This document shows positions 11,823 through 34,736 of a stretch of DNA of 64,000 bases, piece after piece. This stretch comes from Caldithrix sp. Lineage in GTDB: Bacteria; Zhuqueibacterota; Zhuqueibacteria; Oceanimicrobiales; Oceanimicrobiaceae. Under the pieces are notes generated by a model. That model searched no databases. It was not told where the DNA came from and saw only the letters and a program-made list of their open reading frames with translations. The first letter of the stretch is position 1. Each line of letters begins with the position of its first letter. The stretch lies in the NCBI GenBank assembly GCA_004356825.1, contig SMXC01000249.1:21885-85884 (forward strand), given 5' to 3'. The translations under genes were made by a program, and so were the position numbers.

Positions 11823-11846
11823 GATAAAACCCTCTTCCTCTCGAAA

Positions 11847-12725: not shown

Positions 12726-12730
12726 AAGGG

Positions 12731-13720: not shown

Positions 13721-13819
13721 CTATCCTCCTCCAGTTTTTTTTGCAACGGACAAAGCATTCATTAATCTCTATTTTTTCAAATCCCGTTTCCAAATCAAAA
13801 AAACGGAAGCGAAAAAAAA

Positions 13820-14770
13820 TCAAGAGGGTTCTATGCGGTTACGCTCTTCGCGCCTTGAACTTTTATTTTTATTGAAAACATCTTCAACCAGAGTGTAGGC
13901 GCGTTCCAGGGTGGCTTTCTCCACCTGACCTCCGGAAAACTTTGCCACATCGCAGGAATTCAATATCTCATCTACTTCGTTAATTATCTTTTCAGGAACT
14001 GCCAGTTCAATCAATTTGCTTGCGATTTCTTTTGTGGTGATTTCCAGTGCCGGAATCTGGTATTTTTCAGACAAATAGCTTCGAAACACTTTTGAAAGAG
14101 AGGAAAACATTTCCACCACATTCTGATTTTTCAGATCGACCTTTTCTTTAAAGTCAGCAAGGTATCTCTCCTCAATCGGAATTAGCTCCTGGGCGTGTTT
14201 TTCCAACTCGGCTTCCCGTGTTTTTTTTCGCTTCAAAAATACAAAACCTAAGGTGACAACCAAAGCCAAAAAGAAAAGAGTGGAGGCAGCAAAAATAAAC
14301 GGTTTTAATGTTCGTTTTTTAATCGGCGTGACAACTCTGATTTCCAGACGATCCGTGACTAATCGATGTGTTTCGCCATATTTGGTATCTGTATATTCGA
14401 TAATTATACCGTCAATATAGGCCATCCCAAGCTCAATTGGCTGAAGCGTATACTCATAGGTGCGCACCGCCTGCATCACTCCCGCCACCTCACCAACCGA
14501 GTTCGAAGAAGAGTTGCCAATCTCTTCTAAATTGGTTAGAACAGGACTCTCAACCTTGTCGATCTCGTAACGGCTCAAATTACCTTGCCAACTCACTTTG
14601 ATTGTGCAAGTAACTGTTCTGTTTTGAGGAACTTCGTTTAGATCGACTTGGACTGCCGCGGTAATTGCCTCGGTCTGAGATAAGGAACTAACTGCGGAGG
14701 TAACCTGGTTTTGCGGTAAACAAAAATTTACTAAGAAAAATATGAAAACAACCGAAAATAAAAAATGCAT
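13820..14770 (-). CDS. Short BatD-family paralog (signal peptide, periplasmic domain, one TM helix, conserved cytoplasmic tail). First gene of the operon.
   Basis: 316 aa. Signal peptide MHFLFSVVFIFFLVNFC. TM helix FIFAASTLFFLALVVTLGFVFL followed by KRKK. C-terminal ...ALEITTKEIASKLIE...EVDEILNSCDVAKFSGGQ matches the CDxxKF module of the 9724..10746 protein and of BatD. Confidence 0.5.
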   Translation of the reverse strand: MHFLFSVVFIFFLVNFCLPQNQVTSAVSSLSQTEAITAAVQVDLNEVPQNRTVTCTIKVSWQGNLSRYEIDKVESPVLTNLEEIGNSSSNSVGEVAGVMQAVRTYEYTLQPIELGMAYIDGIIIEYTDTKYGETHRLVTDRLEIRVVTPIKKRTLKPFIFAASTLFFLALVVTLGFVFLKRKKTREAELEKHAQELIPIEERYLADFKEKVDLKNQNVVEMFSSLSKVFRSYLSEKYQIPALEITTKEIASKLIELAVPEKIINEVDEILNSCDVAKFSGGQVEKATLERAYTLVEDVFNKNKSSRREERNRIEPS

Positions 14771-14974: not shown

Positions 14975-15032
14975 TAAAAAAGCCGAATTAAATTAATACG
15001 AAAGAATCTCGACATTAATAAATTCGGCTTTC
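14975..15032 (-). terminator. Rho-independent terminator candidate downstream of the TPR lipoprotein gene.
   Basis: Minus strand: AAAGCCGAATT (11 bp) -31 nt loop- AATTCGGCTTT, followed by TTTTTAATTGG. A second short hairpin AAAGC-AGGCA-GCTTT lies right after the stop at 15040-15055. The long loop is atypical. Confidence 0.4.
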
Positions 15033-15055
15033 TTAAAGCTGCCTGCTTTTAAATA

Positions 15056-15574
15056 TCACTTAGTCGCTTCGTCGTTTGTTTTTTTGTTTCCGAATAAGTC
15101 ATCCAACTGATTATTAACATCCTGCCCTAAATGTTCGAGTTCCCATTTAACACTTTCAATAAGCTCATTTTGGGGATGCAGCTCGATAAATTCATTGTAG
15201 TACTGCTTAGCCAACTCGTAGTTTTCCAGGTTATTGGCATAGATAAAGCCTATCATAAACCGCGCCCGGCTCACAAACTCACTGTCCGGATAATCCTTAA
15301 TCAAGCGCTCATGATACTCGACTGCTTTTTTGAAATCATGAATATTATTATAATAAATAAAGGCTGCTCGTTCAATTGCTTCATCAGCATATTGGCCCTG
15401 GGGATAATCATCCAATTGCTCTTCATAAGTTTTTATTGCTTCATCGAAATTTTCCTGGGCCTCGTATTTTTGCGCCAGTTTCAAAAATTCTTCTTCGGTT
15501 CGTTTTTGACCGCAGGCGAGTATCGCCAAACCCAATAGAATGGTCGCGATGGGCATTGTTTTCGTCAAACTCAT
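15056..15574 (-). CDS. TPR-repeat lipoprotein (YbgF/BamD-like small periplasmic TPR protein).
   Basis: 172 aa. Lipobox LAILACG. SD GGAGAG lies 9 nt upstream of the ATG. Three TPR-like repeats (AIKTYEEQLDDYP, AIERAAFIYYNNIHDFKKAVEYHERLIKDYP, ARFMIGFIYANNLENYELAKQYYNEFIELHP). Confidence 0.5.
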   Translation of the reverse strand: MSLTKTMPIATILLGLAILACGQKRTEEEFLKLAQKYEAQENFDEAIKTYEEQLDDYPQGQYADEAIERAAFIYYNNIHDFKKAVEYHERLIKDYPDSEFVSRARFMIGFIYANNLENYELAKQYYNEFIELHPQNELIESVKWELEHLGQDVNNQLDDLFGNKKTNDEATK

Positions 15575-15737
15575 TTTTTTCTACTCTCCTCTAAATTGTT
15601 TTTTTCCGAGTAGGTTATATTAAAAAAAATTACTTCAAAATCAAGTAAATTTTACTAAAATCACGCTCGACTTTGATCCAAAAAAAGGCGAGAAATATTT
15701 ATTCCCCGCCTTTCTGGCAACTCAGTTGTTTTTCAGG

Positions 15738-17669
<1,932 letters not shown>

Positions 17670-17927
17670 TTAAGCTCTTAAGTTTTCAAAATTCTTTTTC
17701 TGAACCGAGTTCAAATGGACTCTGTTTGGCTCAAAATGAAATGTTAAAATGGCAGTTTCTAAATGATCTCCCTGCTTTTTTGCAAACACTATGCCATTAA
17801 ATAATATCCGAACACGAGCGCTGTTTTTATTGAACTTATAATAAATAGCTGGAATTATTAATGAATTGTTTTCAGCCAACAAAGATACAGACTCTGTCAA
17901 TGTGTCTCAATACTGGCGTGCAAATAT

Positions 17928-17952
17928 AAAGGGCGTCCTTGAAGCACCCTTT
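17928..17952 (-). terminator. Stem-loop between fmdB and the dnaK upstream region; weak or bidirectional terminator candidate.
   Basis: AAAGGG-13 nt-CCCTTT stem. The T-tract (TTTTTATT) is on the plus-strand side. Minus-strand side is followed only by TATATTTG. Confidence 0.25.
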
Positions 17953-17970
17953 TTATTCGATAAAAAGAAA

Positions 17971-18270
17971 TTACTTGTCCTCAGTTGATTTTTCAGTAGG
18001 CTTGGTTTCTTTTTTTTCCACTTTAGCAGGCTTTTCGGATTTTTCAGATTTCTCCGTCTTTTCAGATTTCGATTCAGAAACACGATTTGCGTTTTTATAA
18101 TCAGTGATATAAAACCCGGAGCCTTTAAAAATCAATCCGTTTCCTGCGCTGATCAACCGTTCAACCTGTCCTTTACATTCCGGACAAATTTTAACAGGAT
18201 CCGCGGTGATGCTTTGAAATTCCTCAAATTCATGACTGCATTTTTTACATCGATACTCATAAGTAGGCAT
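17971..18270 (-). CDS. FmdB-family zinc-ribbon protein with a Lys/Glu/Ser-rich C-terminal tail.
   Basis: 99 aa. MPTYEYRCKKCSHEFE...CPECKG (CxxC...CxxC zinc-ribbon, FmdB signature YEYRC). Tail SESKSEKTEKSEKSEKPAKVEKKETKPTEKSTEDK. Confidence 0.7.
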   Translation of the reverse strand: MPTYEYRCKKCSHEFEEFQSITADPVKICPECKGQVERLISAGNGLIFKGSGFYITDYKNANRVSESKSEKTEKSEKSEKPAKVEKKETKPTEKSTEDK

Positions 18271-18321
18271 ATTTCAGAATCCTTTATTTAGCTGAAATGT
18301 TCAGTTAATAAATTGACAAGA

Positions 18322-19842
18322 TTATGATTTCGGTACTTTCATTGCAATAAAATGATTGCTTGTCTGACGTTGAATTTGAAACAACACAATGTCTCCTGGT
18401 TGGAGGCTCTCGATGATCTTTTCGACATCGCTTGCCGAACGAACTCTGCGTCTATCAACTTCTTTGATTAAATCACCGCGACGTAAACCTTTTTCAGCTG
18501 CAACGCTGTTGCGACGAATTTTAGAAACCAATGCGCCGCCATCATTGTCATAGCCGTATCTTTCAGCAAGTTCTCGGGTCAGGTTCGCTACCTGAATACC
18601 AAGTTGATTCGTTACACTGCTTTCGGAAACCGGTTCACCCGCACCATTCACACTTGGTCTTTCAGCTAATCGGACAGTTTTAAGTGCAACTTTACCGTCC
18701 CGAATGATTTTTAATGTCACCTCATCACCAGGATTAAAAGAAGCTATTAAATTTGTCAGCATCTGGTGATCTTGAATCTTCTTTCCTTCAACTTCAATAA
18801 TGACATCATATTTTTTGAGTCCTGCTTTATGCGCAGGCGTACCTTGAACCAATTCAACAATTACCGCGCCTCCTCCAACAACCTTCAATTTTAAAGCTTC
18901 ACTCAACTCAGCATCAGGCGTTTCGACACCTACTCCTAGATAACCCCGCACGACCCTACCCTCTGAGATGAGGTCGTCCATAACTTCTTTGGCTAAACTG
19001 ATCGGGATCGCGAAGCCGATGCCTACATTGCCGCCGCCATTTCCTGCATAAATCGCCGTGTTTATTCCGATAAGCTCGCCACGAATATTTACTAAAGCGC
19101 CGCCGCTGTTTCCCGGGTTAATAGCAGCATCTGTTTGAATAAAATCCTGGTAAGTCAAATTGGCGCCTAAGCTTAAATTCGAGCGCCCCTTGGCGCTGAT
19201 AATTCCCGAAGTAACCGTGTGCTGTAAACTAAGATCAAAAGGACTCCCGATTGCCAGCACGAGTTCACCAACCTCCAATTTATCAGAATCGCCGAAACGA
19301 ATTGTAGGCAGATTCTGGGCATCAATATGAACTACTGCAATATCGGTTTCGGGATCTGAGCCTACCACCCTTGCCACATATTCTTTTTTGTCGATGATAA
19401 CATTTAGTTGATCTGCATCTTTGATGACATGGTAGTTTGTTAAAATATAACCGTCGGCTGAGATAATTATCCCGGAGCCGAGCCCGTTTTGGCGAAATTC
19501 CTTGTCACCCCGGCCGCGGCCGGGAAAGAATCTTTTAAAAAATTCATCCTTGCCAAAAAAGTTGGAAAATGGGTCCCGCACTTTGATAACTTTTTCACTT
19601 GTGATCGAAACAACCGTGGGAGTAACTCGTTTTGCGATCTCCACAAAAGCTCGACTTGTGGCTTCTAAATCCGATTTTATTGGGGGCATTGATTGAGGAG
19701 CCCCGGGTGTTAAAACGGACGCTTCACTATCTGCGAAACTATTCTGTGTCCAGCTAAAATTGGAGGCAATGACGAGGCCTACAAAAATTCCTATGCAGAT
19801 TGAAAACACAACAACTAATGATCTTTTATTATTTCGAATCAT
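18322..19842 (-). CDS. htrA: HtrA/DegP-family periplasmic serine endoprotease with two PDZ domains (copy 1).
   Basis: 506 aa. Signal/TM. Catalytic triad contexts TNYHVI (His), D (DIAVVHI), GNSGGALVN (Ser). Two PDZ domains. Confidence 0.9.
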   Translation of the reverse strand: MIRNNKRSLVVVFSICIGIFVGLVIASNFSWTQNSFADSEASVLTPGAPQSMPPIKSDLEATSRAFVEIAKRVTPTVVSITSEKVIKVRDPFSNFFGKDEFFKRFFPGRGRGDKEFRQNGLGSGIIISADGYILTNYHVIKDADQLNVIIDKKEYVARVVGSDPETDIAVVHIDAQNLPTIRFGDSDKLEVGELVLAIGSPFDLSLQHTVTSGIISAKGRSNLSLGANLTYQDFIQTDAAINPGNSGGALVNIRGELIGINTAIYAGNGGGNVGIGFAIPISLAKEVMDDLISEGRVVRGYLGVGVETPDAELSEALKLKVVGGGAVIVELVQGTPAHKAGLKKYDVIIEVEGKKIQDHQMLTNLIASFNPGDEVTLKIIRDGKVALKTVRLAERPSVNGAGEPVSESSVTNQLGIQVANLTRELAERYGYDNDGGALVSKIRRNSVAAEKGLRRGDLIKEVDRRRVRSASDVEKIIESLQPGDIVLFQIQRQTSNHFIAMKVPKS

Positions 19843-19910
19843 CTGTAACCTCCTTAATTCATTCTATTATCTACCAAAATTTTCAATTTATACAAACCGA
19901 TTTTCTCAAA

Positions 19911-19931
19911 AGAAGTTCCGACTCGAAACTT
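19911..19931 (-). terminator. Weak hairpin after dnaJ (GAAGTT-9 nt-AACTTC, then TTTTGAG).
   Basis: 6 bp stem, short U-tract. Possible partial terminator or attenuator between dnaJ and htrA copy 1. Confidence 0.25.
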
Positions 19932-19939
19932 CTATGCCG

Positions 19940-21019
19940 TTAATTTAACTTAATTTTTATGTACTGATCTCCTTGGGAATTATTTTTCGCAATCCCCAGT
20001 CCTTTCAACCGAAATGTTTTTCCTGCATCGCTATTTGGGGGAATCGTTAACTTAACCGAATCACCATTAATCGTCTTCACTTTAATCTTGGTTCCTTGCC
20101 GGGCTTTGTTTTTGTCAATTGTCACCTCACAGTAAATATCCAATCCCTTATTTTTGAAAAACTTATGTTGTCCCACTCGAATTGTTAAAATCAAATCACC
20201 TGCAGGTTCGCCCGGCCCTCCCGGGTTCCCTTGTCCGGACAGTTTTAAATTATGGCCATTTACAGTTGCCGGCTTGATGTTTACTGAAAAAGTTTTACTC
20301 CCCCTGGTTTGCCCGGAACCACCACATTTCTTGCAGGGATCAGAAATTGTTTTCCCTTTTCCCAAACACCTTGGACAAGGACGATTCACAGCGAATGCTC
20401 CTCTCGCCATTGAAACCATACCTGAGCCTTCGCATTCCGCGCAGGTCGAAGGTTTTTGAGAGGCCCGCGATCCCGTTCCCTTACAACTTTCACAAGCGAG
20501 CCCTTTTTGAATCCTAAATTTTGCCTTGCCGCCTAGTACCGCGGTCTCAAAAGGAATTTCTAAATTTACGCTGACATCTTGACCTTTCCCCGGCCGGCCT
20601 TGAGTGCCAAAACCATTTTCTCTATCCAGTACCTGGCTAAAAAGATCACCAAGGCCGCCAAATCCAAAAAAGTCATCTAAATTGAAATCTGCTTTTCTTT
20701 TGGATCGCCGCCTGCTGCCTCCTGAAAAATTACCAAAAATTTCGCTAAGATCAATATTAACGCCCTGAGACCCAAAACCACCGCCAGAAGCTGCGCCAAA
20801 GCCATATTTTCGCATCTGGTCATACTGCTGGCGCTTCTTTGAATCGCTCAGAACATTGTAAGCTTCTGAGACCTCCTTAAATTTTTTTTCGGCCTGTACA
20901 TCACCGGGGTGTGTGTCGGGATGATTCTCTTTGGCAAGTTTCCGATATGACTTTTTTATGGCGTCAAAACCGGCGGCCTCATCGATACCTAAAATTTCGT
21001 AGTAATTCTTATTTGCCAT
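19940..21019 (-). CDS. dnaJ: Chaperone DnaJ (Hsp40).
   Basis: 359 aa. J-domain with HPD (KENHPDTHPGD). G/F-rich region. Four CxxCxGxG zinc-finger repeats. C-terminal domains present. Confidence 0.9.
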   Translation of the reverse strand: MANKNYYEILGIDEAAGFDAIKKSYRKLAKENHPDTHPGDVQAEKKFKEVSEAYNVLSDSKKRQQYDQMRKYGFGAASGGGFGSQGVNIDLSEIFGNFSGGSRRRSKRKADFNLDDFFGFGGLGDLFSQVLDRENGFGTQGRPGKGQDVSVNLEIPFETAVLGGKAKFRIQKGLACESCKGTGSRASQKPSTCAECEGSGMVSMARGAFAVNRPCPRCLGKGKTISDPCKKCGGSGQTRGSKTFSVNIKPATVNGHNLKLSGQGNPGGPGEPAGDLILTIRVGQHKFFKNKGLDIYCEVTIDKNKARQGTKIKVKTINGDSVKLTIPPNSDAGKTFRLKGLGIAKNNSQGDQYIKIKLN

Positions 21020-21194
21020 TGGTCATCAATGTGAATTCACAATCTGTCTAAACGACATTTCTTGAGAAAATATAGAAAGCATGCAATTAATATGCCATGA
21101 GAGTTAAATATTTATTTAACAAAGGGTTAGAACTGACATTCGAAAGCAAGCTGGCGAACAAATCCAAGGAAAGCACTGTCAAAGTGACATACGC

Positions 21195-21232
21195 TTTTCT
21201 TAAATAAGAAAGGCAGAGGAAAATTCTCTGCC
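21195..21232 (-). terminator. Rho-independent terminator downstream of htrA copy 2.
   Basis: Minus strand: GGCAGAG-AATTTTC-CTCTGCC (7 bp perfect stem) followed by TTTCTTATTT. Confidence 0.55.
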
Positions 21233-21263
21233 CTTAAGAATGAAACAACCTAAATGAGCGCCC

Positions 21264-22778
21264 TTACTTTTGCGGGATTTCAACGAAAACATGAACCTCT
21301 TCTTTAAATCTTATCACTGTAAAAATTGAAACCGACCCACCCTCAAGATTGGAAACAAGCTTGTATAAATGATTTTCGTTTCTGATAAATTTATTATCAA
21401 TTTCTGTAATAATGTCGTCCTGTCTTATTCCAGCCTCACTGGCTGGACTCCATCTTTGAACATCAGTAACCAGGGCACCGGAAGTGCCAGAGTAATCCAG
21501 TTCCTTAGCCATTTTACGGTTCAAATCTTTAACCGTAAGGCCTAGGTTTTCGAAATCTTTAGGAAAACTCTTTGTTGCAAAGTTAGTTTCACCCGTTTCT
21601 TTTATCCCCAAGCGGACCCTCAGCTCAACTTTACGGCCATTCCTCAACAACTCAAGAAGCACGATATCACCAGGATTTCTTTTGGCAATTATCGCCTGAA
21701 CCTGGTTGCTTTTGTTTACTTCCCGGCCTTCAATCTTAAGGATGACGTCCTTCGTCCGCACCCCAGCCCTTTCAGCCGGCTCTCCCTTTATGACCTGACT
21801 GACAAAAACACCCATTGGTCTGTCCAACTTCAAAGCACGTGCCTTCTTTTCGTCGATATCCTGCATACCAATTCCCAAATATCCCCGTTCGACTCTCCCT
21901 TTTTGGATCAAGTCGGTCATAATTTTGCTGGCAAGATTGATGGGGATAGCAAAACCAAATCCGACGCTGTAGCCAGTTTCAGTTGCAATTGCAGTATTGA
22001 TGCCAATCACCTCACCCCTGAGGTTAACCAAAGCGCCGCCACTATTCCCGGGGTTAATTGCGGCGTCCGTTTGCAAAAAACTTTCAACACCGTAAGTGTC
22101 GCTAATGATGTCTATACTTCGTTCTTTGGCGCTAATAATCCCGGCTGTGACCGTTGACTGAAGCTCTAAGGGATTTCCAATCGCCAGAACCCATTCCCCG
22201 ACTCTGGTCTTGTCAGAGTCACCTAATTTAACCACGGGCAAATCAGCCGCTTCAATTTTGACTACGGCTACCTCAGTTAGGGGATCCAGGCCGACAATCC
22301 GAGCATCAAATGCGCGCTTATCGGAAAGAATAACTCGGATTCGTTCTGATTTATCCACCACATGAACGTTGGTTAAAATATAGCCGTCTTTCGAAACAAT
22401 AATTCCGGAACCCGCGCCTCGCTGGCGGAATTCTTTAGGGACCTTAAAGCGGAAGAAACGCCGTAAATCATCGCGGTCGTGGAATCGCTCGACGTCGGCC
22501 CTTTTTATCAAACGTGTGCTTTGAATGGTAACCACGGAAGGAACGACAAGTTCAGCTATGTAAATGAATGCTTCACTTGTGCTCTGCAGATCGAGTAATT
22601 TTTGGGGAACTCGTTTTTGCGAACCCAATTGAAAATTTGGAACATTGGTTACCGGAACTACGGGGGGTGAACTTAATGAAGTTTGGGTAAGATCAAACCC
22701 CGATGAAATAATTAAACCCAACAGTAATCCAAGAAACAAAAGTAAAACGCCTAAACGAAGTGAGTGTTGTTTCGACAT
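21264..22778 (-). CDS. htrA: HtrA/DegP-family serine endoprotease with two PDZ domains (copy 2).
   Basis: 504 aa. TNVHVV, GNSGGALVN and two PDZ domains. Paralog of the 18322..19842 gene. Confidence 0.9.
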   Translation of the reverse strand: MSKQHSLRLGVLLLFLGLLLGLIISSGFDLTQTSLSSPPVVPVTNVPNFQLGSQKRVPQKLLDLQSTSEAFIYIAELVVPSVVTIQSTRLIKRADVERFHDRDDLRRFFRFKVPKEFRQRGAGSGIIVSKDGYILTNVHVVDKSERIRVILSDKRAFDARIVGLDPLTEVAVVKIEAADLPVVKLGDSDKTRVGEWVLAIGNPLELQSTVTAGIISAKERSIDIISDTYGVESFLQTDAAINPGNSGGALVNLRGEVIGINTAIATETGYSVGFGFAIPINLASKIMTDLIQKGRVERGYLGIGMQDIDEKKARALKLDRPMGVFVSQVIKGEPAERAGVRTKDVILKIEGREVNKSNQVQAIIAKRNPGDIVLLELLRNGRKVELRVRLGIKETGETNFATKSFPKDFENLGLTVKDLNRKMAKELDYSGTSGALVTDVQRWSPASEAGIRQDDIITEIDNKFIRNENHLYKLVSNLEGGSVSIFTVIRFKEEVHVFVEIPQK

Positions 22779-22782
22779 AATT

Positions 22783-23007
22783 CTAAGTTCCTGTCCTGGT
22801 TACATTCTTAAACTGGCTCCGAATTTTTTTTAGCAGGTTCTCACCCTCTTTCGGAAAAATTAGCAGGAAACCAAAAAATAATAGCGCGACACCTGGTAAA
22901 ATCGGTAAAAACAGGCCAAGTATTCCAAGCACAATTACCACAGGGATTAGCTTTTTTTTATTCTCCTTGAAATCCTTTATTTCATCGACCAAATCTTTTT
23001 TTCGCAT
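22783..23007 (-). CDS. Small inner-membrane protein (YbaN/DUF454-like LPxLPG hairpin).
   Basis: 74 aa. Charged N-terminus, then LIPVVIVLGILGLFLPILPGVALLFFGFLLIFP. Tightly packed between the STAS-kinase gene and htrA. Confidence 0.4.
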   Translation of the reverse strand: MRKKDLVDEIKDFKENKKKLIPVVIVLGILGLFLPILPGVALLFFGFLLIFPKEGENLLKKIRSQFKNVTRTGT

Positions 23008-23034
23008 TTCCCTCCCTAAGTCAGACTGCTCCGG

Positions 23035-24177
23035 TTAAGTTATTTTTAGATATTTTATCATTATCAAGCGGTTCCCACGTTTTTCATCGGGGTAATATTC
23101 TATTTCATCCATCGACCGGCGAATGATATAGAGTCCAAATCCGCCTGTTTGGGCTTTATCCATTGCATTTTTAACATCATATCGCTTCTTACTTATTCCT
23201 TCAAAGCTATATCCGTAATCTTGAATTTCAATTGTTATTTTCACAGCATCAAATTCCACCCACACATCTATCCAATTTTCAGGATTTGAATGATAGGCAT
23301 GTTCAATAACATTTAAAGAAGCCTCATAAACGGCTATCTTGGTTTTACCAACCTCTTTATTGTCAAGACCGGCCTTTTCAGCATATTCCGTTACAAAGTC
23401 GCAAATAGAATACAAATTTTTGGCGATACTTTTGACTCGTAAATGAGGTCTCTTTTTCTGATACGTTTTTTGGGGCTCAGGAGTTGCTATGACTTCCTGA
23501 GTTTTCGGAGAGGCCTGAATCGGTGGAGGTTCGGACGGTTCTTGAATTTCTTTCTTTTCAACCTTGTCGGGGTTCGGCATATGCTGGAGCTGGGCATTCT
23601 GAAATGTGCTTTCCAATTGTTCGATAACCGGATCTTCAACGATATCAACCTTTGGTGAAGCCTGGTCTTCTACAGGCGCCTTATCCCTGGCTTGCTGCGT
23701 AATTTCATCTTGGGTTGAAACGCGTGTTTCTGCCGCTGAAGATTTTCTTACTTCCTGGTCTGCAGTATCGTTAATTTCGTCCTGAGTGCTTTTGAGAATT
23801 TTATCTTCAGATACAAACGTTTCCTGAAAATCCTCTAAAGCAAATTTTTCTTCAGTTTCTAATGAAAGATAGCTAGTGGGTGAAAACGTAACCAGGTTGT
23901 TTTTAGCAGAACTAGATAAATGGGTAATTTTGACATCGCCGTTTAATCTTCGCGCCCGTGATGTGGCTTCAACTAATAAGGCAATGAGACTGGCGGTTGG
24001 AAATTGCACATTCTGCAAATCGACAATGATCCTGGTTTTGCCATCCCGAAAACAGACTTCAAAAGAATCCTGTAAAATCTGAAACACAATATGAGTGTCA
24101 TCAATATCTTCTAAAGGGATACGAACCACATTGTCAAATCCGGCAATTGGCTCATATGCAATTTTTTTAGTATCCAT
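23035..24177 (-). CDS. Fusion protein: N-terminal STAS (anti-sigma-factor-antagonist-like) domain, about 130 aa acidic/Pro/Gln-rich linker, and a C-terminal GHKL anti-sigma-factor-type Ser kinase (RsbW/SpoIIAB-like).
   Basis: 380 aa. N-terminus RIIVDLQNVQFPTASLIALLVEATSRARRLNGDVKITHLSSSAKNNL is STAS-like. C-terminus KIAVYEASLNVIEHAY...DYGYSFEG...GGFGLYIIRRSMDEIEY is HATPase_c (RsbW-type N, G1 and G2 boxes). Confidence 0.6.
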   Translation of the reverse strand: MDTKKIAYEPIAGFDNVVRIPLEDIDDTHIVFQILQDSFEVCFRDGKTRIIVDLQNVQFPTASLIALLVEATSRARRLNGDVKITHLSSSAKNNLVTFSPTSYLSLETEEKFALEDFQETFVSEDKILKSTQDEINDTADQEVRKSSAAETRVSTQDEITQQARDKAPVEDQASPKVDIVEDPVIEQLESTFQNAQLQHMPNPDKVEKKEIQEPSEPPPIQASPKTQEVIATPEPQKTYQKKRPHLRVKSIAKNLYSICDFVTEYAEKAGLDNKEVGKTKIAVYEASLNVIEHAYHSNPENWIDVWVEFDAVKITIEIQDYGYSFEGISKKRYDVKNAMDKAQTGGFGLYIIRRSMDEIEYYPDEKRGNRLIMIKYLKIT

Positions 24178-24231
24178 AAAAGATAGAACTTATTTTTTTC
24201 GAATTTAGAATCTTGCAGTTAAACGAACTAA

Positions 24232-25920
24232 TCAGTTCGTGCTAGAAACCACCTTTGGATTTATACTTTTCTCTTTCAACATTCTTCGGAGGACTTTACC
24301 AATATTACTTTTCGGCAATGAATCTCGAAACTCAACTTGCTTAGGGACTTTAAATGCGGCCAGTTTTGATTTACAAAATTCAATAACTTCTCCGGCAGAA
24401 AGCGAGGCGCCGTCTTTGCAAACCACAAAGGCTTTTACTGTCTCACCCCGGTATTCGTCCGGTACCCCAATGACTGCAGCTTCTAAAATTTTGGGATGCT
24501 CAAACAAAACCTCCTCAATTTCCCTCGGAAATATATTGAAGCCGCCAGCAATGATCATATCCTTCTTGCGGTCAACAATATAAAAATAACCATCTTCATC
24601 AACTCTGGACATATCGCCTGTATAAAGCCACCCGTCTCTTAAAACTTCTTTGGTCTCATTATCCATTTTCCAGTAACCGCTCATCACTTGCGGACCCTTG
24701 ATCGCAAGCTCTCCGACCTCTCCGTTGGGAAGGGGTTTTTTAGTCTCAGGATCAACTACCATTGCATCCGTGTTTGGCAGGGGCGTTCCAATCGAACCTT
24801 CTTTTCGCATCCCGTTGATGGAATTTGCATGAGTGACAGGAGAGGTTTCCGAAAGACCGTAGCCCTCAACCAGTGCACCGTGCGAAATTTCTTCAAACTG
24901 CCTGGCAACTTTTAAAGGTAATGGGGCGCCGCCGCTAACGCAAGCTTTAATTGAAGAAAGGTCATATTTGGATATTCCCGGAAAATTGTTAATAGCTACA
25001 AAAAGAGTCGGAACACCGGAAAACAAGGTCGCCTTTTCCTTTTGAATAGCTTTCAACAAAGTTTTAATATCCCTTGGATTCGGAATTAAGACCATCGGCG
25101 AGTTCAGCAAGACTGCCATGTGCAGACAGGTCGTTAAGCCATAACTATGAAAAAAAGGAAGCGCGCACAGAACGACCTCTTCCCTATCTTTGACCTCGCC
25201 GTACCATGTCCTGATCTGAATTACGTTAGCCACCAAGTTTCGATGAGTTAAAACGGCTCCTTTCGAGACCCCGGTGGTTCCTCCGGTATAGAGAAAAATT
25301 GCAGTGTCATCCGGTTTGACATCTACCTCGGGAATCTTGGAAACAAATTTTTCGGTGATTAAATCTTCAAAAAAATGAATTCCGGGGGCGCGATTTACTT
25401 TATACCAATTCCCCTCTTTCCTAGCCTTTAGAGGATATAAGAGTTTCAGCAAAGCGGGCAAATACTCTTGAATACTAGTTATAATGACATTTCTCAGACC
25501 CGTCTCGGGCTTAATTTTTTCTACTTTGGGGAAATGCATATCAAGGGCGATGATGGTTTCTGCGCCGCTGTTATTCAATTGATACTGAAGTTCACGCTCC
25601 ATATAAAGAGGGTTTGTCGGTACTAAAATCGCACCAATTTTAAGGACGGCAAAATGAGCGATCGGGTATTGAGGAATGTTCGGCAACATGATTGCTACCC
25701 GATCACCTTGTTTAACGCCTAATCTCATTAAGGCAATTGCAAACTGGTTTACTAATCTTCCGAGTTCAGCGTAGGTTATCTTCTTACCAAAAAATGAAAC
25801 AGCTGAACCGTTTGGTGTGTTCTCCACCGTCTGTTCAAAAAGCTGAGATAGGGCGATTTCCGGAAACTCAATTTCTGCAGGGACTTGATCTTCGTAAAAC
25901 TTAATCCAGGGCTTGTCCAT
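24232..25920 (-). CDS. fadD: Long-chain-fatty-acid-CoA ligase (AMP-binding, FadD-like).
   Basis: 562 aa. AMP-binding motif LYTGGTTGVSKGAVLTHRN. Full ANL-superfamily layout. C-terminal GKV/ILRR. Confidence 0.85.
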   Translation of the reverse strand: MDKPWIKFYEDQVPAEIEFPEIALSQLFEQTVENTPNGSAVSFFGKKITYAELGRLVNQFAIALMRLGVKQGDRVAIMLPNIPQYPIAHFAVLKIGAILVPTNPLYMERELQYQLNNSGAETIIALDMHFPKVEKIKPETGLRNVIITSIQEYLPALLKLLYPLKARKEGNWYKVNRAPGIHFFEDLITEKFVSKIPEVDVKPDDTAIFLYTGGTTGVSKGAVLTHRNLVANVIQIRTWYGEVKDREEVVLCALPFFHSYGLTTCLHMAVLLNSPMVLIPNPRDIKTLLKAIQKEKATLFSGVPTLFVAINNFPGISKYDLSSIKACVSGGAPLPLKVARQFEEISHGALVEGYGLSETSPVTHANSINGMRKEGSIGTPLPNTDAMVVDPETKKPLPNGEVGELAIKGPQVMSGYWKMDNETKEVLRDGWLYTGDMSRVDEDGYFYIVDRKKDMIIAGGFNIFPREIEEVLFEHPKILEAAVIGVPDEYRGETVKAFVVCKDGASLSAGEVIEFCKSKLAAFKVPKQVEFRDSLPKSNIGKVLRRMLKEKSINPKVVSSTN

Positions 25921-25950
25921 ATAGAATACCGGTATTGGGTTGCCTTGAGA

Positions 25951-25988
25951 GAAAAAAAAACACCCACCTAGGTTGGTGGGCGTTTTTT
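25951..25988 (-). terminator. Bidirectional rho-independent terminator ending the gap-tpiA-secG-tRNA-TPR transcription unit.
   Basis: CCCACC-TAGGTT-GGTGGG stem flanked by A9 upstream and T6 downstream. Read on the minus strand: GCCCACC..GGTGGGTG followed by T9. Confidence 0.6.
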
Positions 25989-26008
25989 AGTATTAGCTTT
26001 GTTTATTT

Positions 26009-27088
26009 TTAATAACTGCCGTATTTATCTCTATTCTTAATAAGGTCGATTTCATAATCTGCAGTTTTTTTCCAGACCCTGCTTTTTCCTGCAATTCCAA
26101 AATACTTGATGGCTTGGTTAAACTGCCCTAATTCCTTACACGCCTTACCAGCTTCGTATGCAGCGGGGGCATAATTTTTTTTATTATTTAAAGCCTCAAT
26201 CGCCGCCGCTTTGGCTTTCGAATAAGCGCTTTTTTTATTATAGGCCGCTGCCAATCGATAATGAGGACCTTCCCATCTTTTTTTCTTGGTGACCGCCAAG
26301 GCATTTTCCAAAGCCATGACGGCCTGATCCAGTTTTCCGAGTTCTATTAAACTTACCCCGAGGCTGTAGAACGCTTTGTCGTATGCAGGGTTAATTTGAG
26401 TCGCTTTCTGAAAGCTTTCAGAAGCTTTTTTATAATTTTTCTTCTTGTTTTGATAGACTTCACCAAGCATATAGTGCATTTTTGCATCCTTCGGATCGTA
26501 CTGGATCGCTTGATTGTAAACTGCAATGGCTTCATCTGGCTGGCTTAACTGGTTGTAAGTCTTTCCCAACGCCAGGTAGGCACTTGAGTATGCAGGGTCA
26601 TTATCAATTGCGGCCTGAAAAGCTGCCAATGCTTCTTTATATTTTCTCTGTTTCTTTAATGTCAGGCCTTTGCCGTAATGGGCTCGAACAAAAGTCGAAT
26701 CCAATGAAATTGCTTTGTTGTAATAATTAAGTGCTTCAGGCAATTGACCGAGTTTGAGGGCACTATTTCCGGCATTACCCGCCCTCTTAACCGCATTTAT
26801 TTTTTTCATTGTGGCGTCATCAGACTTCATTATTTTTTCAATTGCTTTAATTTCGGCTACAATCTTTTCCCGTTTTTTAATCAGGTCTTCGTATTCTTCG
26901 GGCGTAGGATTACTTTTGAGCTTTGCATCTATCTCAGTAACTTGTTTGCGCTTTGCTTGCTTTTGTTGATTCAAGTCCTGGCTTAAAGCTGTTGTGGTAT
27001 TAAACAAAAAGAAAGCTATAATTAACACTAAACCGGTAGTAATTCTAATAAAGAACTTCATAAGTACCTCCGATGGCTTAAAAGTCAT
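26009..27088 (-). CDS. TPR-repeat protein with N-terminal signal/TM and a coiled-coil N-region.
   Basis: 359 aa. Hydrophobic N-terminus (probable start MKFFIRITTGLVLIIAFF). At least six TPR repeats (ALNYYNKAISLDSTFVRAHYGKGLTL..., AIAVYNQAIQYDPKDAKMHYMLGEVY...). Confidence 0.6.
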   Translation of the reverse strand: MTFKPSEVLMKFFIRITTGLVLIIAFFLFNTTTALSQDLNQQKQAKRKQVTEIDAKLKSNPTPEEYEDLIKKREKIVAEIKAIEKIMKSDDATMKKINAVKRAGNAGNSALKLGQLPEALNYYNKAISLDSTFVRAHYGKGLTLKKQRKYKEALAAFQAAIDNDPAYSSAYLALGKTYNQLSQPDEAIAVYNQAIQYDPKDAKMHYMLGEVYQNKKKNYKKASESFQKATQINPAYDKAFYSLGVSLIELGKLDQAVMALENALAVTKKKRWEGPHYRLAAAYNKKSAYSKAKAAAIEALNNKKNYAPAAYEAGKACKELGQFNQAIKYFGIAGKSRVWKKTADYEIDLIKNRDKYGSY

Positions 27089-27123
27089 AACAATTTAAAC
27101 TAACTTAACAAAATCTATGAAAG

Positions 27124-27207
27124 TGCCGAAGGGGGGACTCGAACCCCCACTGGGTTGCCCCACACGGCCCTCAACCGTGCGTGTCTACCAAATTCCACCA
27201 CTTCGGC
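27124..27207 (-). tRNA. tRNA-Leu (anticodon GAG), type II tRNA with a long variable arm; CCA not encoded.
   Basis: Reverse complement folds as acceptor GCCGAAG/CTTCGGC, D-stem GTG/CAC, anticodon stem CACGG/CCGTG with loop TTGAGGG (anticodon GAG, G37), variable arm TGGGGCAACCCAGT, T-arm GGGGG-TTCGAGT-CCCCC, discriminator A. Confidence 0.8.
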
Positions 27208-27221
27208 AATGCTGCTCAAAA

Positions 27222-27602
27222 TTATTTTGCAGAATCCTGTGCAACGGGTTCAGGCTGTTGTGATTCGCTGGGGAGACGAGGTAAATCTCCGGTTGGCACA
27301 AATGGCAAATTGACGGCAGCCGAACCTCTTTTTTGTTGTTCCCGGCCCACCAGGCTCCGGCTTTCAACGCTGCCTCGACTGAGAAAAGAGAGAAGCAGCG
27401 CAATTCCCAAAAATCCTACAGCCAACCAGCTGGTCATTTTGGTTAAAAAATTCCCGGCACCCCTACCTCCGAAGACAGCTCCGGCGCCACCGCCGCCGCC
27501 AAAAGCACCCGCAAGACCTCCTCCTTTACTCGACTGAAGAAGAATCACAAGAATCAACCCAAAACAAACCATAATAAATAAAACCATTAATATTGCGATC
27601 AT
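27222..27602 (-). CDS. secG: Preprotein translocase subunit SecG.
   Basis: 126 aa. Two TM helices separated by a Gly-rich loop (LLQSSKGGGLAGAFGGGGGAGAVFGGRGAGNFLTKMT). SecG signature. Followed by tRNA-Leu(GAG), as in E. coli secG-leuU. Confidence 0.8.
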   Translation of the reverse strand: MIAILMVLFIMVCFGLILVILLQSSKGGGLAGAFGGGGGAGAVFGGRGAGNFLTKMTSWLAVGFLGIALLLSFLSRGSVESRSLVGREQQKRGSAAVNLPFVPTGDLPRLPSESQQPEPVAQDSAK

Positions 27603-30487: not shown

Positions 30488-31372
30488 ATGCTGCAAAAAT
30501 CTTACACGACTTTACTACTCATTGCCTTGATTTTCTGTCGATGTGCGGAGAAGAGTCCAAGCCAAACGAAGCAAACGCCAGGTGAATTTACGCTGCTTAC
30601 TTATAATGTGGCCGGACTTCCTCAGAGTATTTCTCCCTCAAATCCGGAAAAAAATATTCCACTAATCAGCCCTAAACTAAACAAGTTTGACATTACTTTG
30701 GTGCAGGAAGATTTTGTTTATCATAAGGAATTAAAATCCAAAGCTAATCACCTTTACCAATCTCAAACTCAAATAGACTGTTCGCCGCATTTTGTTACTG
30801 ACGGATTAAACCGATTTTCTAAATTTCCATTTGGAAAATTATACCGCAAGGCCTGGGAAACCTGTTCAAATGAAAAAGGCAACGATTGTCTGGCAGCAAA
30901 AGGTTTCACCCTGGCGAAAACGGAAATTGCTCCAAAGGTTTTTATTGATATTTACAATCTCCATCTCGATTCCGGAGGAAGTCCAAACGATACGGAAGCC
31001 AGACGGTCGCAGGTTGCTCAACTGCTGAAAGCAATCCGCACCTACTCTTTCGGAAATGCCGTGATAATTGCCGGGGACCTCAACTTAAACACAACACACC
31101 GCCCGAACGATGTTGAAATTTTCAAAACCCTGCTTACCGGGGCCGGCTTGACCGATGTTTGCCGATCCCTGTCATGCGGCACAGAGTTAGTTGATCGGGT
31201 GCTGTTTCGAAATGGAAATTCTTTAGCTCTGAGGGCCGTTTCCTGGGGATTGGACGAAAATTTTGTGGACGAGCTCGGGCAGAATTTAAGCGACCACAGC
31301 GCCGTTAACGTCCGTTTCAGATGGAAAAAGCGAGACATGCAAGTGTGGACTTCCACCCCACTGGAAAAATAA
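30488..31372 (+). CDS. Endonuclease/exonuclease/phosphatase (EEP) family secreted or lipoprotein phosphoesterase. Only plus-strand gene in the window.
   Basis: 294 aa. Signal/lipobox (LIALIFCRC). EEP motifs LLTYNVAGLP, ITLVQEDF, IIAGDLNL, SDHSAVNVRF. Confidence 0.7.
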   Translation: MLQKSYTTLLLIALIFCRCAEKSPSQTKQTPGEFTLLTYNVAGLPQSISPSNPEKNIPLISPKLNKFDITLVQEDFVYHKELKSKANHLYQSQTQIDCSPHFVTDGLNRFSKFPFGKLYRKAWETCSNEKGNDCLAAKGFTLAKTEIAPKVFIDIYNLHLDSGGSPNDTEARRSQVAQLLKAIRTYSFGNAVIIAGDLNLNTTHRPNDVEIFKTLLTGAGLTDVCRSLSCGTELVDRVLFRNGNSLALRAVSWGLDENFVDELGQNLSDHSAVNVRFRWKKRDMQVWTSTPLEK

Positions 31373-31396: not shown

Positions 31397-32446
31397 CTAG
31401 TTAAAAATCTTCTTATCAGTCGCGTGTGCCAGAGCTTCCTCCTTAGCAATTAGCCCCTCCTCAACATAATTCTTCAAAGCCTGGTCAAAACTCTGCATGC
31501 CAAAGGCTGCTCCGGTTTGAATGGCTGAATGAATCTGGTGAGTCTTCTCTTCACGGATCAGGTTGCGGACAGCCGCCGTCGCAATCATAATTTCATGCAC
31601 GCCAACGCGGCCTGTGCCATCTTTGGTGGGCAAAAGTCTTTGTGCTATGATGCCCTGCACTGCGTTCGCAAACATGGCGCGGATCTGCCTCTGCTGCTCG
31701 GACGGAAAAACATCGACAATCCTGTTGACTGTTTCTGCAGCACTCATAGTGTGCAAGGTTGCAAAAACCAGGTGGCCGGTCTCAGCCGCAGTCAAAGCCA
31801 AAGAAATCGTTTCCAAATCGCGCATTTCACCGACTAAAATGACATCGGGATCTTCCCTAAGAGCGCTCTTCAAAGCATTGGCAAACGAATGCGTATGTTC
31901 ACCCAATTCTCGCTGGTTAATAAGACAATTCTTACTCTTGTGTACATATTCAATCGGATCTTCTATCGTTAGAATATGCTCCCGGCGTTCTTCGTTAATC
32001 AAATCGATCATCGCGGCCAGGGTTGTCGACTTGCCCGACCCGGTAGGCCCGGTTACCAGAACAAGTCCTTTTCTCTCGCGGCAAAGATCGTGGATCCCCT
32101 TCGGAGCTCCCAACTCTTCCAGGGGTCGAATTCTATCCGGAATGGTACGAAAAGCCGCTGCCTCACCACGAAGTTGAAAAAAGAGGTTCGTTCTAAAACG
32201 AGCCACATTGGGAATGGCATAAGCAAAATCCAACTCGAGGTTTTTTTCTAATGTTTGGCGCTGTTTGTCGGTGAGGATTTCTGCAATCACCGACCTCAGT
32301 CCTGAACTGGTAATTTGAGTGTTCTCAAGCCGACGCAGGGTGCCGTGGATTCGTAGAATTGGTGGGTTGCCGGCACTCAAGTGAATATCCGAGGCATCTT
32401 TCTCAACTGCAAAGTTTAAAAGTTTATCAAGATCGGTTTTATGCAT
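31397..32446 (-). CDS. pilT: Type IV pilus retraction ATPase PilT.
   Basis: 349 aa. ASDIHL, Walker A GPTGSGKST, Asp box, Walker B ILVGEMRD and His box motifs of PilT/PilU. Confidence 0.9.
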   Translation of the reverse strand: MHKTDLDKLLNFAVEKDASDIHLSAGNPPILRIHGTLRRLENTQITSSGLRSVIAEILTDKQRQTLEKNLELDFAYAIPNVARFRTNLFFQLRGEAAAFRTIPDRIRPLEELGAPKGIHDLCRERKGLVLVTGPTGSGKSTTLAAMIDLINEERREHILTIEDPIEYVHKSKNCLINQRELGEHTHSFANALKSALREDPDVILVGEMRDLETISLALTAAETGHLVFATLHTMSAAETVNRIVDVFPSEQQRQIRAMFANAVQGIIAQRLLPTKDGTGRVGVHEIMIATAAVRNLIREEKTHQIHSAIQTGAAFGMQSFDQALKNYVEEGLIAKEEALAHATDKKIFN

Positions 32447-32452
32447 TTCTCT

Positions 32453-34246
32453 TTAGGAGCCTGTCACCAGTCGTGGTGTGATAAAAATCAGCAGGTCTGT
32501 CTGCTTTTTCGTTTTAGTTTTATGCCTGAACAAATTACCGATTAAAGGAATGTCGCCCAGCAGCCAGACTTTACTTACGGTCTCAATCGTGTTTTCACGT
32601 ATTAAGCCGCCGATCACCATGGTTTCGTTGTTTTTCAAAGTGACAACTGTTTCAACGGAGCGTTTTGAAGTAATCGGCGCGCTGTTGCCTCCCGCACTGA
32701 CTTGCCCGATGACCTCCTCAACTTCAGGGTTCACAAACAAAGTGATCGTCTCATTGTCACTGACGTGAGCGGTAACCCGCAAAGCGATATTAACATCGCG
32801 ATATTCGAACGTGACCACATCTCCCTGGCCGCCAACCCCACGGGTAATTTTCGGAATCGGAAACGTCGTTCCGACGCTGATGTAAGCCTCTTGATTATCC
32901 GTCGCTAGAATTCGCGGGTTTGAAATCAGCTTCGTATTGGTATTGCTGTTTAAGAAATCGATGACTGCACTGTACTCATCAAACGTCAGGGTACCGTAAC
33001 TAATGTTGCCACCAGTTAAAGGGATTTCGGCGCTTTGCCGCACAGGCGTTCCGGAAGGAAGAAGAACTTCGCGAAAGATCTGGGCGTTGATAGTTTTCGA
33101 CCAGTCAATCCCAAGTTTCTCATCACTCTGAGGTGAGATTTCAATTAGTTTTGCCTCAATCATGATTTGCGGAGCCGGCACATCCAGAGCTGCTATCATG
33201 GCATTTAAATGTTGAATATTCTCAGGAGAATCCGTCACAATTAAGGTACTGCTGCGATTTTTTATTTTACCGCCTTTGCCATCTTCATCCGCTGTTTGCT
33301 CCCGTCGGTAACTGTGATAATAAACCTGAACTTTAGCCTGAGGAGATAGAACCTGGATAGCGCTATTTTTTAAATTATTAGCATCGACATATTTTAGCCG
33401 ATAAATTTTTGTTTCTAGTTCCGGTGCCTCGAACTTATCTCTCGGCTTCACCAAAATGACTTGATTCTTGACAATGTAATCGAGACCGCCGGCCTTAACC
33501 ACCAAATCCAAAGCCTCTTTAACGGTCACATTCGCAAGGCTGACGGTTATCGTTGCATTTACATCTTGACTGGCTACAATATTTAAATTGCCTTGTTTAG
33601 CAATCAGGCGAAGTACATTTGAAAGCTGGGCCCCCTTCACATCTAATGATATTCTCTCGGTGCTATTTAAGGCCGGCGGCAGCACATCAACAGATCTATC
33701 TCTTAAACTCTTTGACTCCAGAAAAGCATTTTTAGTCAAAGACGGCTTAGGTTCTGAACTTTCAAATAATCCGGAAAGCTCTGCCGGATAATTAAAAGCT
33801 TCCGACTCTGAGAAGCCCGATAAGTCGGCAGATTCAGGCAAATCCGGTTTGCTTAAATCAATGTAAAACAATCCCATTATGCTTTTCTTTATTTGATATT
33901 CTACAGCACCGGCCAGAATAACAGATATTTTTGCAATCGCCGGCGTCTTCTTTAATTGCTCAACATGAATTTCTCTTACCAGGCCATTTCGATAAAGAAA
34001 ATCTGATTTTGAAAGATCCAGTTTTGTATGTTTCAAATAAACTGTTAAAGTCGAGGAGGCTTTGTCAAATTTGGCAACCGTGGTCACAGGCCCGTCGCAC
34101 TGAACCAAAATGCGATAAAAGCTCGCCATATTAAGCAGCTCAATTTCCCGCAGCTTATAAGTTTGCCCATGACCTGAAGCCGTCAGCCCGAAACTAAATA
34201 CAATAGTGATTAAGCCAAGTAAAGAAATTTTATAACATTTCATCAT
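32453..34246 (-). CDS. pilQ: Type IV pilus secretin PilQ.
   Basis: 597 aa. Signal peptide. N-terminal AMIN/N0-N1-like region. C-terminal secretin domain (VVTLKNNETMVIGGLIRE...LLGDIPLIGNLFRHKTKTKKQTDLLIFITPRLV). Confidence 0.85.
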   Translation of the reverse strand: MMKCYKISLLGLITIVFSFGLTASGHGQTYKLREIELLNMASFYRILVQCDGPVTTVAKFDKASSTLTVYLKHTKLDLSKSDFLYRNGLVREIHVEQLKKTPAIAKISVILAGAVEYQIKKSIMGLFYIDLSKPDLPESADLSGFSESEAFNYPAELSGLFESSEPKPSLTKNAFLESKSLRDRSVDVLPPALNSTERISLDVKGAQLSNVLRLIAKQGNLNIVASQDVNATITVSLANVTVKEALDLVVKAGGLDYIVKNQVILVKPRDKFEAPELETKIYRLKYVDANNLKNSAIQVLSPQAKVQVYYHSYRREQTADEDGKGGKIKNRSSTLIVTDSPENIQHLNAMIAALDVPAPQIMIEAKLIEISPQSDEKLGIDWSKTINAQIFREVLLPSGTPVRQSAEIPLTGGNISYGTLTFDEYSAVIDFLNSNTNTKLISNPRILATDNQEAYISVGTTFPIPKITRGVGGQGDVVTFEYRDVNIALRVTAHVSDNETITLFVNPEVEEVIGQVSAGGNSAPITSKRSVETVVTLKNNETMVIGGLIRENTIETVSKVWLLGDIPLIGNLFRHKTKTKKQTDLLIFITPRLVTGS

Positions 34247-34712: not shown

Positions 34713-34736
34713 TTAAATTCTCGATGATTATCCGTT

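Follow-up and report, generated by a model that had tools for sequence, protein, structure and literature searches.

Can the two halves of a partner switch, an anti-sigma kinase and its STAS-domain antagonist, operate as a single polypeptide? The question is raised by a gene for a 380-residue protein of Caldithrix sp. (GenBank assembly GCA_004356825.1), found in a stretch of 64,000 nucleotides from contig SMXC01000249.1 (positions 21,885 to 85,884 of the forward strand) that is referred to here as the window. An earlier reading of the sequence, called the original prediction below, described this protein as a STAS domain followed by a disordered, acidic linker and an RsbW-type kinase. Profile searches, predicted fold and model confidence all agree with that architecture. 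The mechanism proposed is that of a self-contained single-chain partner switch, in which the tethered STAS domain would be the kinase's own partner and probable substrate (through Ser63 in this protein), either in cis or across a dimer, and would thereby control access to a target. This mechanism is put forward tentatively, as a possibility somewhat short of an even chance.

Domain Architecture

The C-terminus is a GHKL Ser/Thr kinase domain of the RsbW/SpoIIAB type, with all of the ATP-binding motifs intact. The domain search proposed in the original prediction returns a match to HATPase_c_2 (PF13581) over residues 254-375, at E=3e-23 and 82.6 bits against a cutoff of 27.4, and PF13581 is matched by all 85 aligned members of the family. 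Those 85 sequences (alignment A1) make up the family alignment and profile, and the column counts for residues and linkers given below are drawn from 119 members. The family profile aligns with RsbW (6m36) at E=7e-18 and with SpoIIAB at E=7e-8. In the AlphaFold2 model, the predicted local distance difference test score (pLDDT) exceeds 90 for kinase residues 245-380, and a Foldseek search of the PDB with the C-terminal domain returns the RsbW and SpoIIAB structures 6m37, 6m36, 1til and 1l0o at E=1e-7 to 1e-9, with target-normalised template modelling (TM) scores of 0.8-0.92. The N-box residues E285, N289 and H293, the G1 motif D320xG322 and the G2 motif G345-G346-F347-G348 are invariant across the 85 sequences and align with the corresponding motifs of RsbW and SpoIIAB. 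The best NCBIfam similarities of the domain are also to RsbW and SpoIIAB, although at scores far under the equivalog cutoffs (66 vs 145 bits for PRK04069, 55.7 vs 155 for TIGR01924 and 53.1 vs 135 for TIGR01925).

The N-terminus is a divergent STAS domain, and its identification requires family-level and structural evidence because Pfam gives no support on the single sequence. The STAS_2 model scores 12.4 bits against a threshold of 29.2 (E=0.19), and TIGR00377 is also under threshold, at 16.4 bits against 53.45 (E=0.006). The Pfam check suggested in the original prediction therefore fails for this protein taken alone, but succeeds for the family: 41 of the 85 members individually match Pfam STAS (PF01740) at E<=0.01, and the family profile aligns with SpoIIAA (1auz) at E=4e-4 over residues 12-116, the whole N-terminal domain. 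AlphaFold2 predicts the canonical STAS topology (β-β-α-β-α-β-α-β-α) for about residues 10-125 with pLDDT >90, and Foldseek matches this domain to RsbS (6jhk), SpoIIAA (1til_B), 4xs5, TM1081 and other STAS proteins with TM scores of 0.68-0.81. Conservation of helix α2 (..IALLIEATSRARR..) and of the α3 region (SAKNNLxTFSP) goes far beyond what the fold alone demands.

Integrity and Distribution of the Fusion

The reading frame runs uninterrupted from ATG to stop, and its translation includes the peptides quoted in the original prediction. That prediction had raised the possibility of two genes joined by an unrecognised frameshift. In such an artefact, adjacent STAS and kinase genes would have been merged by a sequencing frameshift or an assembly error and the linker would be translated intergenic DNA, a suspicion encouraged by the poor conservation, low complexity and low pLDDT of the linker. 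However, gene calls on 22 independent contigs, which come from different samples, give the identical 380-residue protein. STAS and kinase domains share a single open frame in 71 of the 71 related species-level loci in which both are detectable, with linkers of 7-137 residues, and the linker contains a conserved motif. The artefact is so improbable that it can be set aside, and the two-gene reading of positions 23035-24177 is rejected. A split version, with separate genes for STAS domain and kinase, was not found among the related loci. Fusion is obligate across the family.

The family is confined to KSB1/Zhuqueibacterota and Calditrichota. A database search recovers 231 related clusters of 268-403 residues, mostly in metagenome-assembled genomes (MAGs) of candidate division KSB1 and Calditrichaeota. 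An exhaustive hidden Markov model (HMM) search finds 76 representatives at E<=1e-30, of which about 60 (counted at 50% identity) are full-length family members. The 80 species-level genome loci retrieved for comparison all come from MAGs, labelled as KSB1, Zhuqueibacterota or Calditrichota or carrying generic or probably mis-assigned labels, and none of the loci examined led to a cultured host.

The Linker

The 123-residue linker carries a net charge of -9 and is rich in Glu (12%), Gln (12%) and Pro (10%), and also in Lys. It is predicted to be disordered, with pLDDT <50 in the AlphaFold2 model, and no Pfam or NCBIfam domain match falls inside it. The median linker length in the family is 62 residues, and the 380-residue protein belongs to a long-linker subclade. 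Giant linkers of about 290-480 residues, still within one open reading frame, occur in P0132 (705 residues) and at L055:9971-11623 (550 residues, from a Caldithrix sp. MAG). The string STQDEI appears twice in the linker of the 380-residue protein and hinted at a tandem duplication, but Tandem Repeats Finder found nothing at the DNA level.

Within the linker lies a conserved short motif, D178-I-x-[ED]-[DN]-P-Φ-Φ-E-x-L188. Its columns are conserved in 94 of 119 members for D178, 106 for I179, 94 for P183 and 83 for L188, such that the motif is present in roughly 80-90% of the family. It is missing only in the forms with the shortest linkers (P0096 and P0098).

The Presumed Phosphorylation Site

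The original prediction had pointed to a phosphorylatable Ser or Thr in the sequence FPTAS. Alignment revises this: both an HMM alignment and an independent MAFFT alignment place Ser58 of SpoIIAA, the canonical phospho-acceptor, opposite Ala62, and Ser59 opposite Ser63. Helix α2 begins at residue 62 in the AlphaFold2 model, and its hydrophobic register agrees with the pairing of Ser58 and Ala62. Judged from these alignments, phosphorylation at the canonical site would be impossible in the 380-residue protein, because the equivalent of Ser58 is Ala62. Ser63 is a conjectural candidate for the phospho-acceptor.

The family as a whole is mixed at position 62, with Ala in 41, Thr in 40 and Ser in 29 of the 119 members, such that 58% have Ser or Thr at the canonical position. 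Position 63 is Ser or Thr in 100 of 119. All 119 have a Ser or Thr at 62 or 63 and none lacks both (Fisher p=1.4e-5), a pattern that gives p=0.02 after de-replication at 60% identity. Pro60 is found in 118 of 119 members and is invariant in the 85-sequence alignment, and the glycine of the canonical DSSG motif is lost across the family.

These residues bear on the possibility that the tethered STAS domain is a pseudo-substrate. The S58A variant of SpoIIAA is non-phosphorylatable and binds SpoIIAB tightly. By analogy, a STAS domain with Ala62 could permanently cap the kinase or anti-sigma domain, to be released not by phosphorylation but by an outside signal, such as envelope stress or proteolysis of the linker by an HtrA-type protease, that works on the linker motif or through a small membrane protein encoded downstream. 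Such a cap fits the Ala found at the canonical position both here and in 34% of members, the long disordered linker, presumably accessible to proteases and bearing a conserved short motif, and the operon shared with genes for a membrane protein and a protease. A pseudo-substrate is harder to reconcile with the Ser or Thr that most members have at position 62 and that all have at 62 or 63, or with the fully conserved catalytic machinery, which argues for real phosphotransfer. This explanation is considered distinctly unlikely.

Comparison with Known Systems

With the RsbW-RsbV and SpoIIAB-SpoIIAA pairs of Bacillus, the fusion protein shares the same two folds. Its kinase is closest to RsbW, with identical N, G1 and G2 motifs, and its STAS domain aligns end-to-end with SpoIIAA. 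The Bacillus systems consist of two proteins, whereas here a single polypeptide holds both domains on either side of a 123-residue disordered linker. The DSSG of the Bacillus antagonists is P-T-A-S here, with Ala at the equivalent of Ser58, and neither a sigma factor gene nor a PP2C gene is nearby, within the 64-kb window.

A kinase and a STAS antagonist in one chain are also found in Rv1364c of Mycobacterium tuberculosis, which has the order PAS-PP2C-GHKL kinase-STAS (PMC7693655). Experiments have shown that Rv1364c autophosphorylates the STAS domain within its chain (PMC7693655, citing Greenstein 2009 and Sachdeva 2008). In Rv1364c, however, the kinase precedes the STAS domain, the reverse of the order described here, and a PAS sensor and a PP2C phosphatase are present, whereas only STAS and HATPase_c_2 domains are detected in the 380-residue protein. 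Rv1364c is without the long acidic linker or the DIxEDP motif, and belongs to another phylum and another gene context.

Recently, the kinases CapK (HTH-STAS-GHKL, with HTH for helix-turn-helix) and VapK (STAS-GHKL) have been described (EMBO J 2026, PMC13373217). In these proteins a groove between closely packed STAS and GHKL domains senses single-stranded DNA, and the protein that is phosphorylated is a separate STAS protein, CapS or VapS, always encoded adjacently (PMC13373217). The likeness lies in the STAS-then-GHKL order within one protein, in a kinase that resembles anti-sigma-factor kinases, and in genes encoded beside those that they influence. It suggests a rival to the single-chain switch, in which the fused STAS domain and the linker motif would form a sensor through which a ligand or protein signal gates the kinase, and the substrate would be encoded elsewhere, for example a standalone STAS protein or another regulator. 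The precedent for phosphorylation of a separate STAS protein (PMC13373217), Ala62 at the canonical phospho-Ser position and the absence of DSSG across the family are all in keeping with a sensor, and the catalytic motifs of the kinase are invariant, so some substrate must exist. There is, however, no homology: with query sequences taken from Appendix Table S2 of PMC13373217, hhalign aligns the family profile with VapK at a probability of 0.3% over 13 columns and with V. cholerae CapK at 0.1%. No gene for a STAS substrate is adjacent, whereas capS and vapS always are. The domains of CapK and VapK are packed together, while here 7-137 disordered residues separate them and AlphaFold2 leaves them undocked. 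The neighbours are protease and chaperone genes rather than a defence context, and the PADLOC defence models give no match. On this evidence a sensory role with a distant substrate is rated as rather unlikely.

Other fusions of STAS and HATPase_c_2 occur in metagenomes, with the order STAS-Zn-ribbon-kinase in P0200, P0208 and P0221, STAS-kinase in P0212, and the reverse order, kinase-STAS, in P0180, P0189 and P0236 (250-272 residues). The giant fusion P0181 also includes SpoIIE. These proteins have the same two Pfam domains, and several have the same order with a spacer of 70-170 residues. They differ in having a canonical STAS domain over the Pfam threshold, and those of the same order keep an SSxG phospho-motif and have a CxxC...CxxC Zn-ribbon in the spacer. 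Against the family profile they score only about E=1e-27 to 1e-29, whereas true members score E<1e-50. Within the Zn-ribbon family with STAS-spacer-HATPase_c_2 architecture, SSxG is kept in P0200, P0208 and P0221 and lost in P0214.

The fused STAS and GHKL architecture is thus already known. The original prediction had presented it as unusual, but it has precedents in Rv1364c, in CapK and VapK and in metagenomic fusions of both orders, and in IMG the label 'anti-sigma regulatory factor (Ser/Thr protein kinase)/anti-anti-sigma regulatory factor' is already attached to several members of the family. The present family is distinct from these and uncharacterised; it is set apart by its divergent STAS domain, its motif-bearing acidic linker and the membrane protein and protease genes that share its operon.

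Gene Neighbourhood

All 64 kb of the window were annotated, in part from Pfam hits already computed for matching contigs and in part by direct scanning (Table 1). The operon that includes the STAS-kinase gene likely consists of the genes for an acyl-CoA synthetase, the STAS-kinase protein, a small protein with two transmembrane segments and an HtrA-type protease, and terminator-like hairpins mark its likely boundaries. No terminator lies between the acyl-CoA synthetase gene and the STAS-kinase gene, and the former is probably the first gene of the transcription unit in this genome. It is upstream in only some relatives, in which the upstream side is the more variable, with insertions of up to about 5 kb. 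The STAS-kinase, small transmembrane protein and protease genes appear to form a tight operon that is probably translationally coupled.

In 47 of 77 loci the kinase gene is followed within 400 nt by a small transmembrane open reading frame, often with a 4-nt overlap with the kinase stop codon. The slot holds two unrelated types, the DUF454-like hairpin with two transmembrane segments and the LPILPG motif, and a protein of 70-78 residues with an N-terminal transmembrane segment and a coiled coil; both types often show the 4-nt overlap. In the DUF454-like type, residues G28, G31, P35, G39 and P52 are invariant, and 13 of 18 homologs (type A) match DUF454 weakly, the best at E=5.5e-5. The side comparison of small transmembrane proteins used loci L020, L021, L072, L074, L075, L078, L079, L083, L086, L087 and L090.

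In 57 of 62 loci the 3 kb that follow on the same strand include a protease gene, for either HtrA or Zn_peptidase_2. Some quality-control gene is found within 10 kb in 49 of 53 loci, and dnaJ or dnaK within 10 kb in 43 of 53. At a distance of 60-2200 nt past the STAS-kinase gene, the metallopeptidase Zn_peptidase_2 (PF04298) replaces or precedes HtrA in L033, L050, L053, L070 and some 30 further loci. A protease gene follows the kinase gene even at loci that are without a nearby dnaJ or dnaK. Such loci contain Zn_peptidase_2, major facilitator superfamily, Fe-S, LysM and metabolic genes, and no signalling partner, sigma factor or PP2C gene was found in them.

Table 1. Features in and around the STAS-kinase gene, numbered from the first nucleotide of the window
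Feature	Positions	Strand	Basis
STAS-linker-RsbW-type kinase open reading frame, 380 residues	23035..24177	-	Open reading frame listing, ATG to stop
Divergent STAS domain, residues 8-120	23818..24156	-	Family profile, Pfam by member, AlphaFold2, Foldseek, translation check
T61-A62-S63, N-terminus of STAS helix α2	23989..23997	-	HMM alignment, MAFFT alignment, translation check
Acidic Pro/Gln-rich linker, residues 121-243	23449..23817	-	Composition, pLDDT
Conserved linker motif DIVEDPVIEQLESTF	23602..23646	-	Column counts, translation check
RsbW/SpoIIAB-type GHKL Ser/Thr kinase domain, residues 244-378	23044..23448	-	PF13581, profile, Foldseek, translation check
Terminator-like hairpin (14-bp stem and T-run) after TPR gene, likely upstream unit boundary	25955..25988	-	
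Acyl-CoA synthetase (AMP-binding) gene, 54 nt upstream of the STAS-kinase gene, same strand	24232..25920	-	Pfam
Two-transmembrane hairpin protein, 74 residues, LPILPG motif, weakly DUF454-like, 27 nt downstream of the kinase gene	22783..23007	-	Open reading frame
HtrA/DegP-type serine protease (Trypsin_2 and 2 PDZ), 4 nt past the small transmembrane gene	21264..22778	-	Pfam
Terminator-like hairpin (10-bp stem) after htrA, likely downstream unit boundary	21209..21235	-	
σ54-type -24/-12 promoter TGGCATATTAATTGCA, 62 nt upstream of dnaJ	21082..21097	-	TGGCAY-N5-TTGCW match
σ54-type -24/-12 promoter TGGCATAGTGTTTGCA, 124 nt upstream of dnaK	17781..17796	-	TGGCAY-N5-TTGCW match

Elsewhere in the window, a BatA-D/MoxR/VWA cluster lies at about 3400-14770, type IV pilus genes (pilM/N, a secretin and a PilT-like gene) at about 31400-37850, and a two-component gene pair at 45797-48130. 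Nearly all genes are on the minus strand, a 294-residue open reading frame at 30488-31372 (+) being the exception, and the GC skew is consistently negative across the window. A tRNA gene (Rfam, 52 bits) is found between secG and the TPR gene, at 27124-27207 (-), and an Rfam scan of positions 15000-27500 returned only this tRNA.

Predicted Promoters of the Chaperone Genes

The chaperone genes downstream of htrA appear to be separately controlled. The consensus TGGCAY-N5-TTGCW has only two perfect matches in the window, where 0.18 would be expected; both are correctly oriented, and they lie upstream of dnaJ and dnaK (Table 1). The pattern recurs in the 80 related loci (1.2 Mb), in which 54 matches lie on the plus strand and 2 of 56 on the opposite strand. 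Of the plus-strand matches, 41 fall in the 350 nt that precede dnaJ (in 16 of 51 genes) or dnaK (in 25 of 42 genes), whereas a match precedes the STAS-kinase gene in only 3 of 58. A search of the window for CIRCE, the HrcA operator, found none, and no gene for a σ54 activator (enhancer-binding protein) was found in the window. A scan for σ70-type promoters was indistinguishable from shuffled sequence and was not used. A σ54-like site with one mismatch, TGGCATGCCATTTGCC, lies at 3243-3258 (-), about 55 nt upstream of a 412-residue open reading frame at 1950-3188 (-) that has no Pfam match, and is possibly a third σ54 promoter.

It is predicted from these promoter matches that dnaJ and dnaK are transcribed separately, each from its own σ54-type promoter, and that chaperone expression in KSB1 and Calditrichota is σ54-dependent. 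Published predictions for Bacteroidota and Planctomycetota also place chaperone genes under σ54 (PMC12316311), and the prediction made here fits the trend reported for FCB-group bacteria. The σ54-type promoters argue against a single operon headed by the STAS-kinase gene and against a simple control of dnaJ and dnaK by way of a σ70-family anti-sigma activity. The original prediction had placed the gene at the head of a small-membrane-protein/htrA/dnaJ/htrA/fmdB/dnaK string. This has to be given up, since the acyl-CoA synthetase gene comes before it, a terminator-like hairpin follows the first htrA, and dnaJ and dnaK have σ54-type promoters of their own.

Proposed Mechanism

The single-chain switch takes the observed folds, ATP motifs, obligate fusion, linker motif and synteny as its ground, and adds domain-domain binding, phosphorylation, a target and a signal as conditional steps. 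The STAS domain would sit on the partner-binding face of a kinase domain, either that of its own chain or that of the other chain in a kinase dimer. Once the kinase had used ATP to phosphorylate a hydroxyl residue at the N-terminus of α2, the contact between the two would weaken; the residue would be Ser63 in the 380-residue protein and that at canonical position 62 in the 58% of members that have a Ser or Thr there. The freed kinase domain, the linker motif or both might then bind a further target. The output would be tied to the envelope and to protein quality control, probably sensed or anchored at the membrane via the small transmembrane protein, and would not be a direct control of the σ54-driven dnaJ and dnaK. 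Because no second, separate STAS gene is found in the 64-kb window, parsimony favours the fused STAS domain as partner or substrate, and the conservation of the neighbourhood suggests the envelope and quality-control output. Also in favour of the switch are the Ser or Thr that every one of the 119 members has at 62 or 63, the strong conservation of helix α2 and the α3 region, the precedent of Rv1364c, and the short gaps between the genes of the likely operon.

Several observations weigh against such a switch. AlphaFold2 neither docks the two domains nor folds the linker motif (predicted TM score, pTM, 0.45), and a second model, of the short-linker, motif-bearing P0047, has the same pTM of 0.45 and a linker pLDDT <50; as models, these appear neither to support nor to contradict intramolecular docking. 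The canonical phospho-acceptor position is Ala in the 380-residue protein and in 41 of 119 members (34%), and the D-S-S-G motif is replaced by P-x-x-S-[LF] in the family and by P-T-A-S here. Helix capping by itself would be enough to account for a Ser or Thr close to the N-terminus of a helix. A sensory rather than a substrate role for a fused STAS domain has precedents in CapK and VapK (PMC13373217). The remark in the original prediction that no sigma factor is encoded nearby holds for the entire 64-kb window, which also has no gene for a PP2C phosphatase of the SpoIIE/RsbU type, and neither was found within +/-10 kb in three annotated relatives. Finally, gene order is collinear across the clade for >20 kb, from the secretin genes to the MoxR genes, and this confounds the signal from the neighbourhood. 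Therefore, although a functional link to protein quality control is plausible, the linkage supports such a connection rather than proving it, since much of it is this collinearity.

A more far-reaching arrangement, offered as a long shot, is that the family would be a membrane-coupled, sigma-independent switch for proteostasis specific to KSB1 and Calditrichota. The two-transmembrane protein would report envelope stress, and the co-encoded HtrA or Zn-protease, or a σ54 enhancer-binding protein, would recognise DIxEDPΦΦExL as a docking site or degron. The STAS domain with Ala62 would gate the kinase without a PP2C phosphatase, and the system would be reset by proteolysis or membrane signals rather than by dephosphorylation.

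Significance

For the annotation of this locus, the architecture is confirmed, the phospho-site is non-canonical, the operon is shorter than had been described, and σ54 is predicted to drive the adjacent chaperone genes. In practical terms the value is modest, given that kinase-STAS fusions have experimental precedents and that the loci examined include no cultured host. If the proposed mechanism is true, the protein would be a minimal one-protein model of how tethering alters the kinetics of partner switching. It would also open a first way into the regulation of the envelope and of protein quality control in KSB1/Zhuqueibacterota and Calditrichota, two phyla of which almost nothing is in culture.

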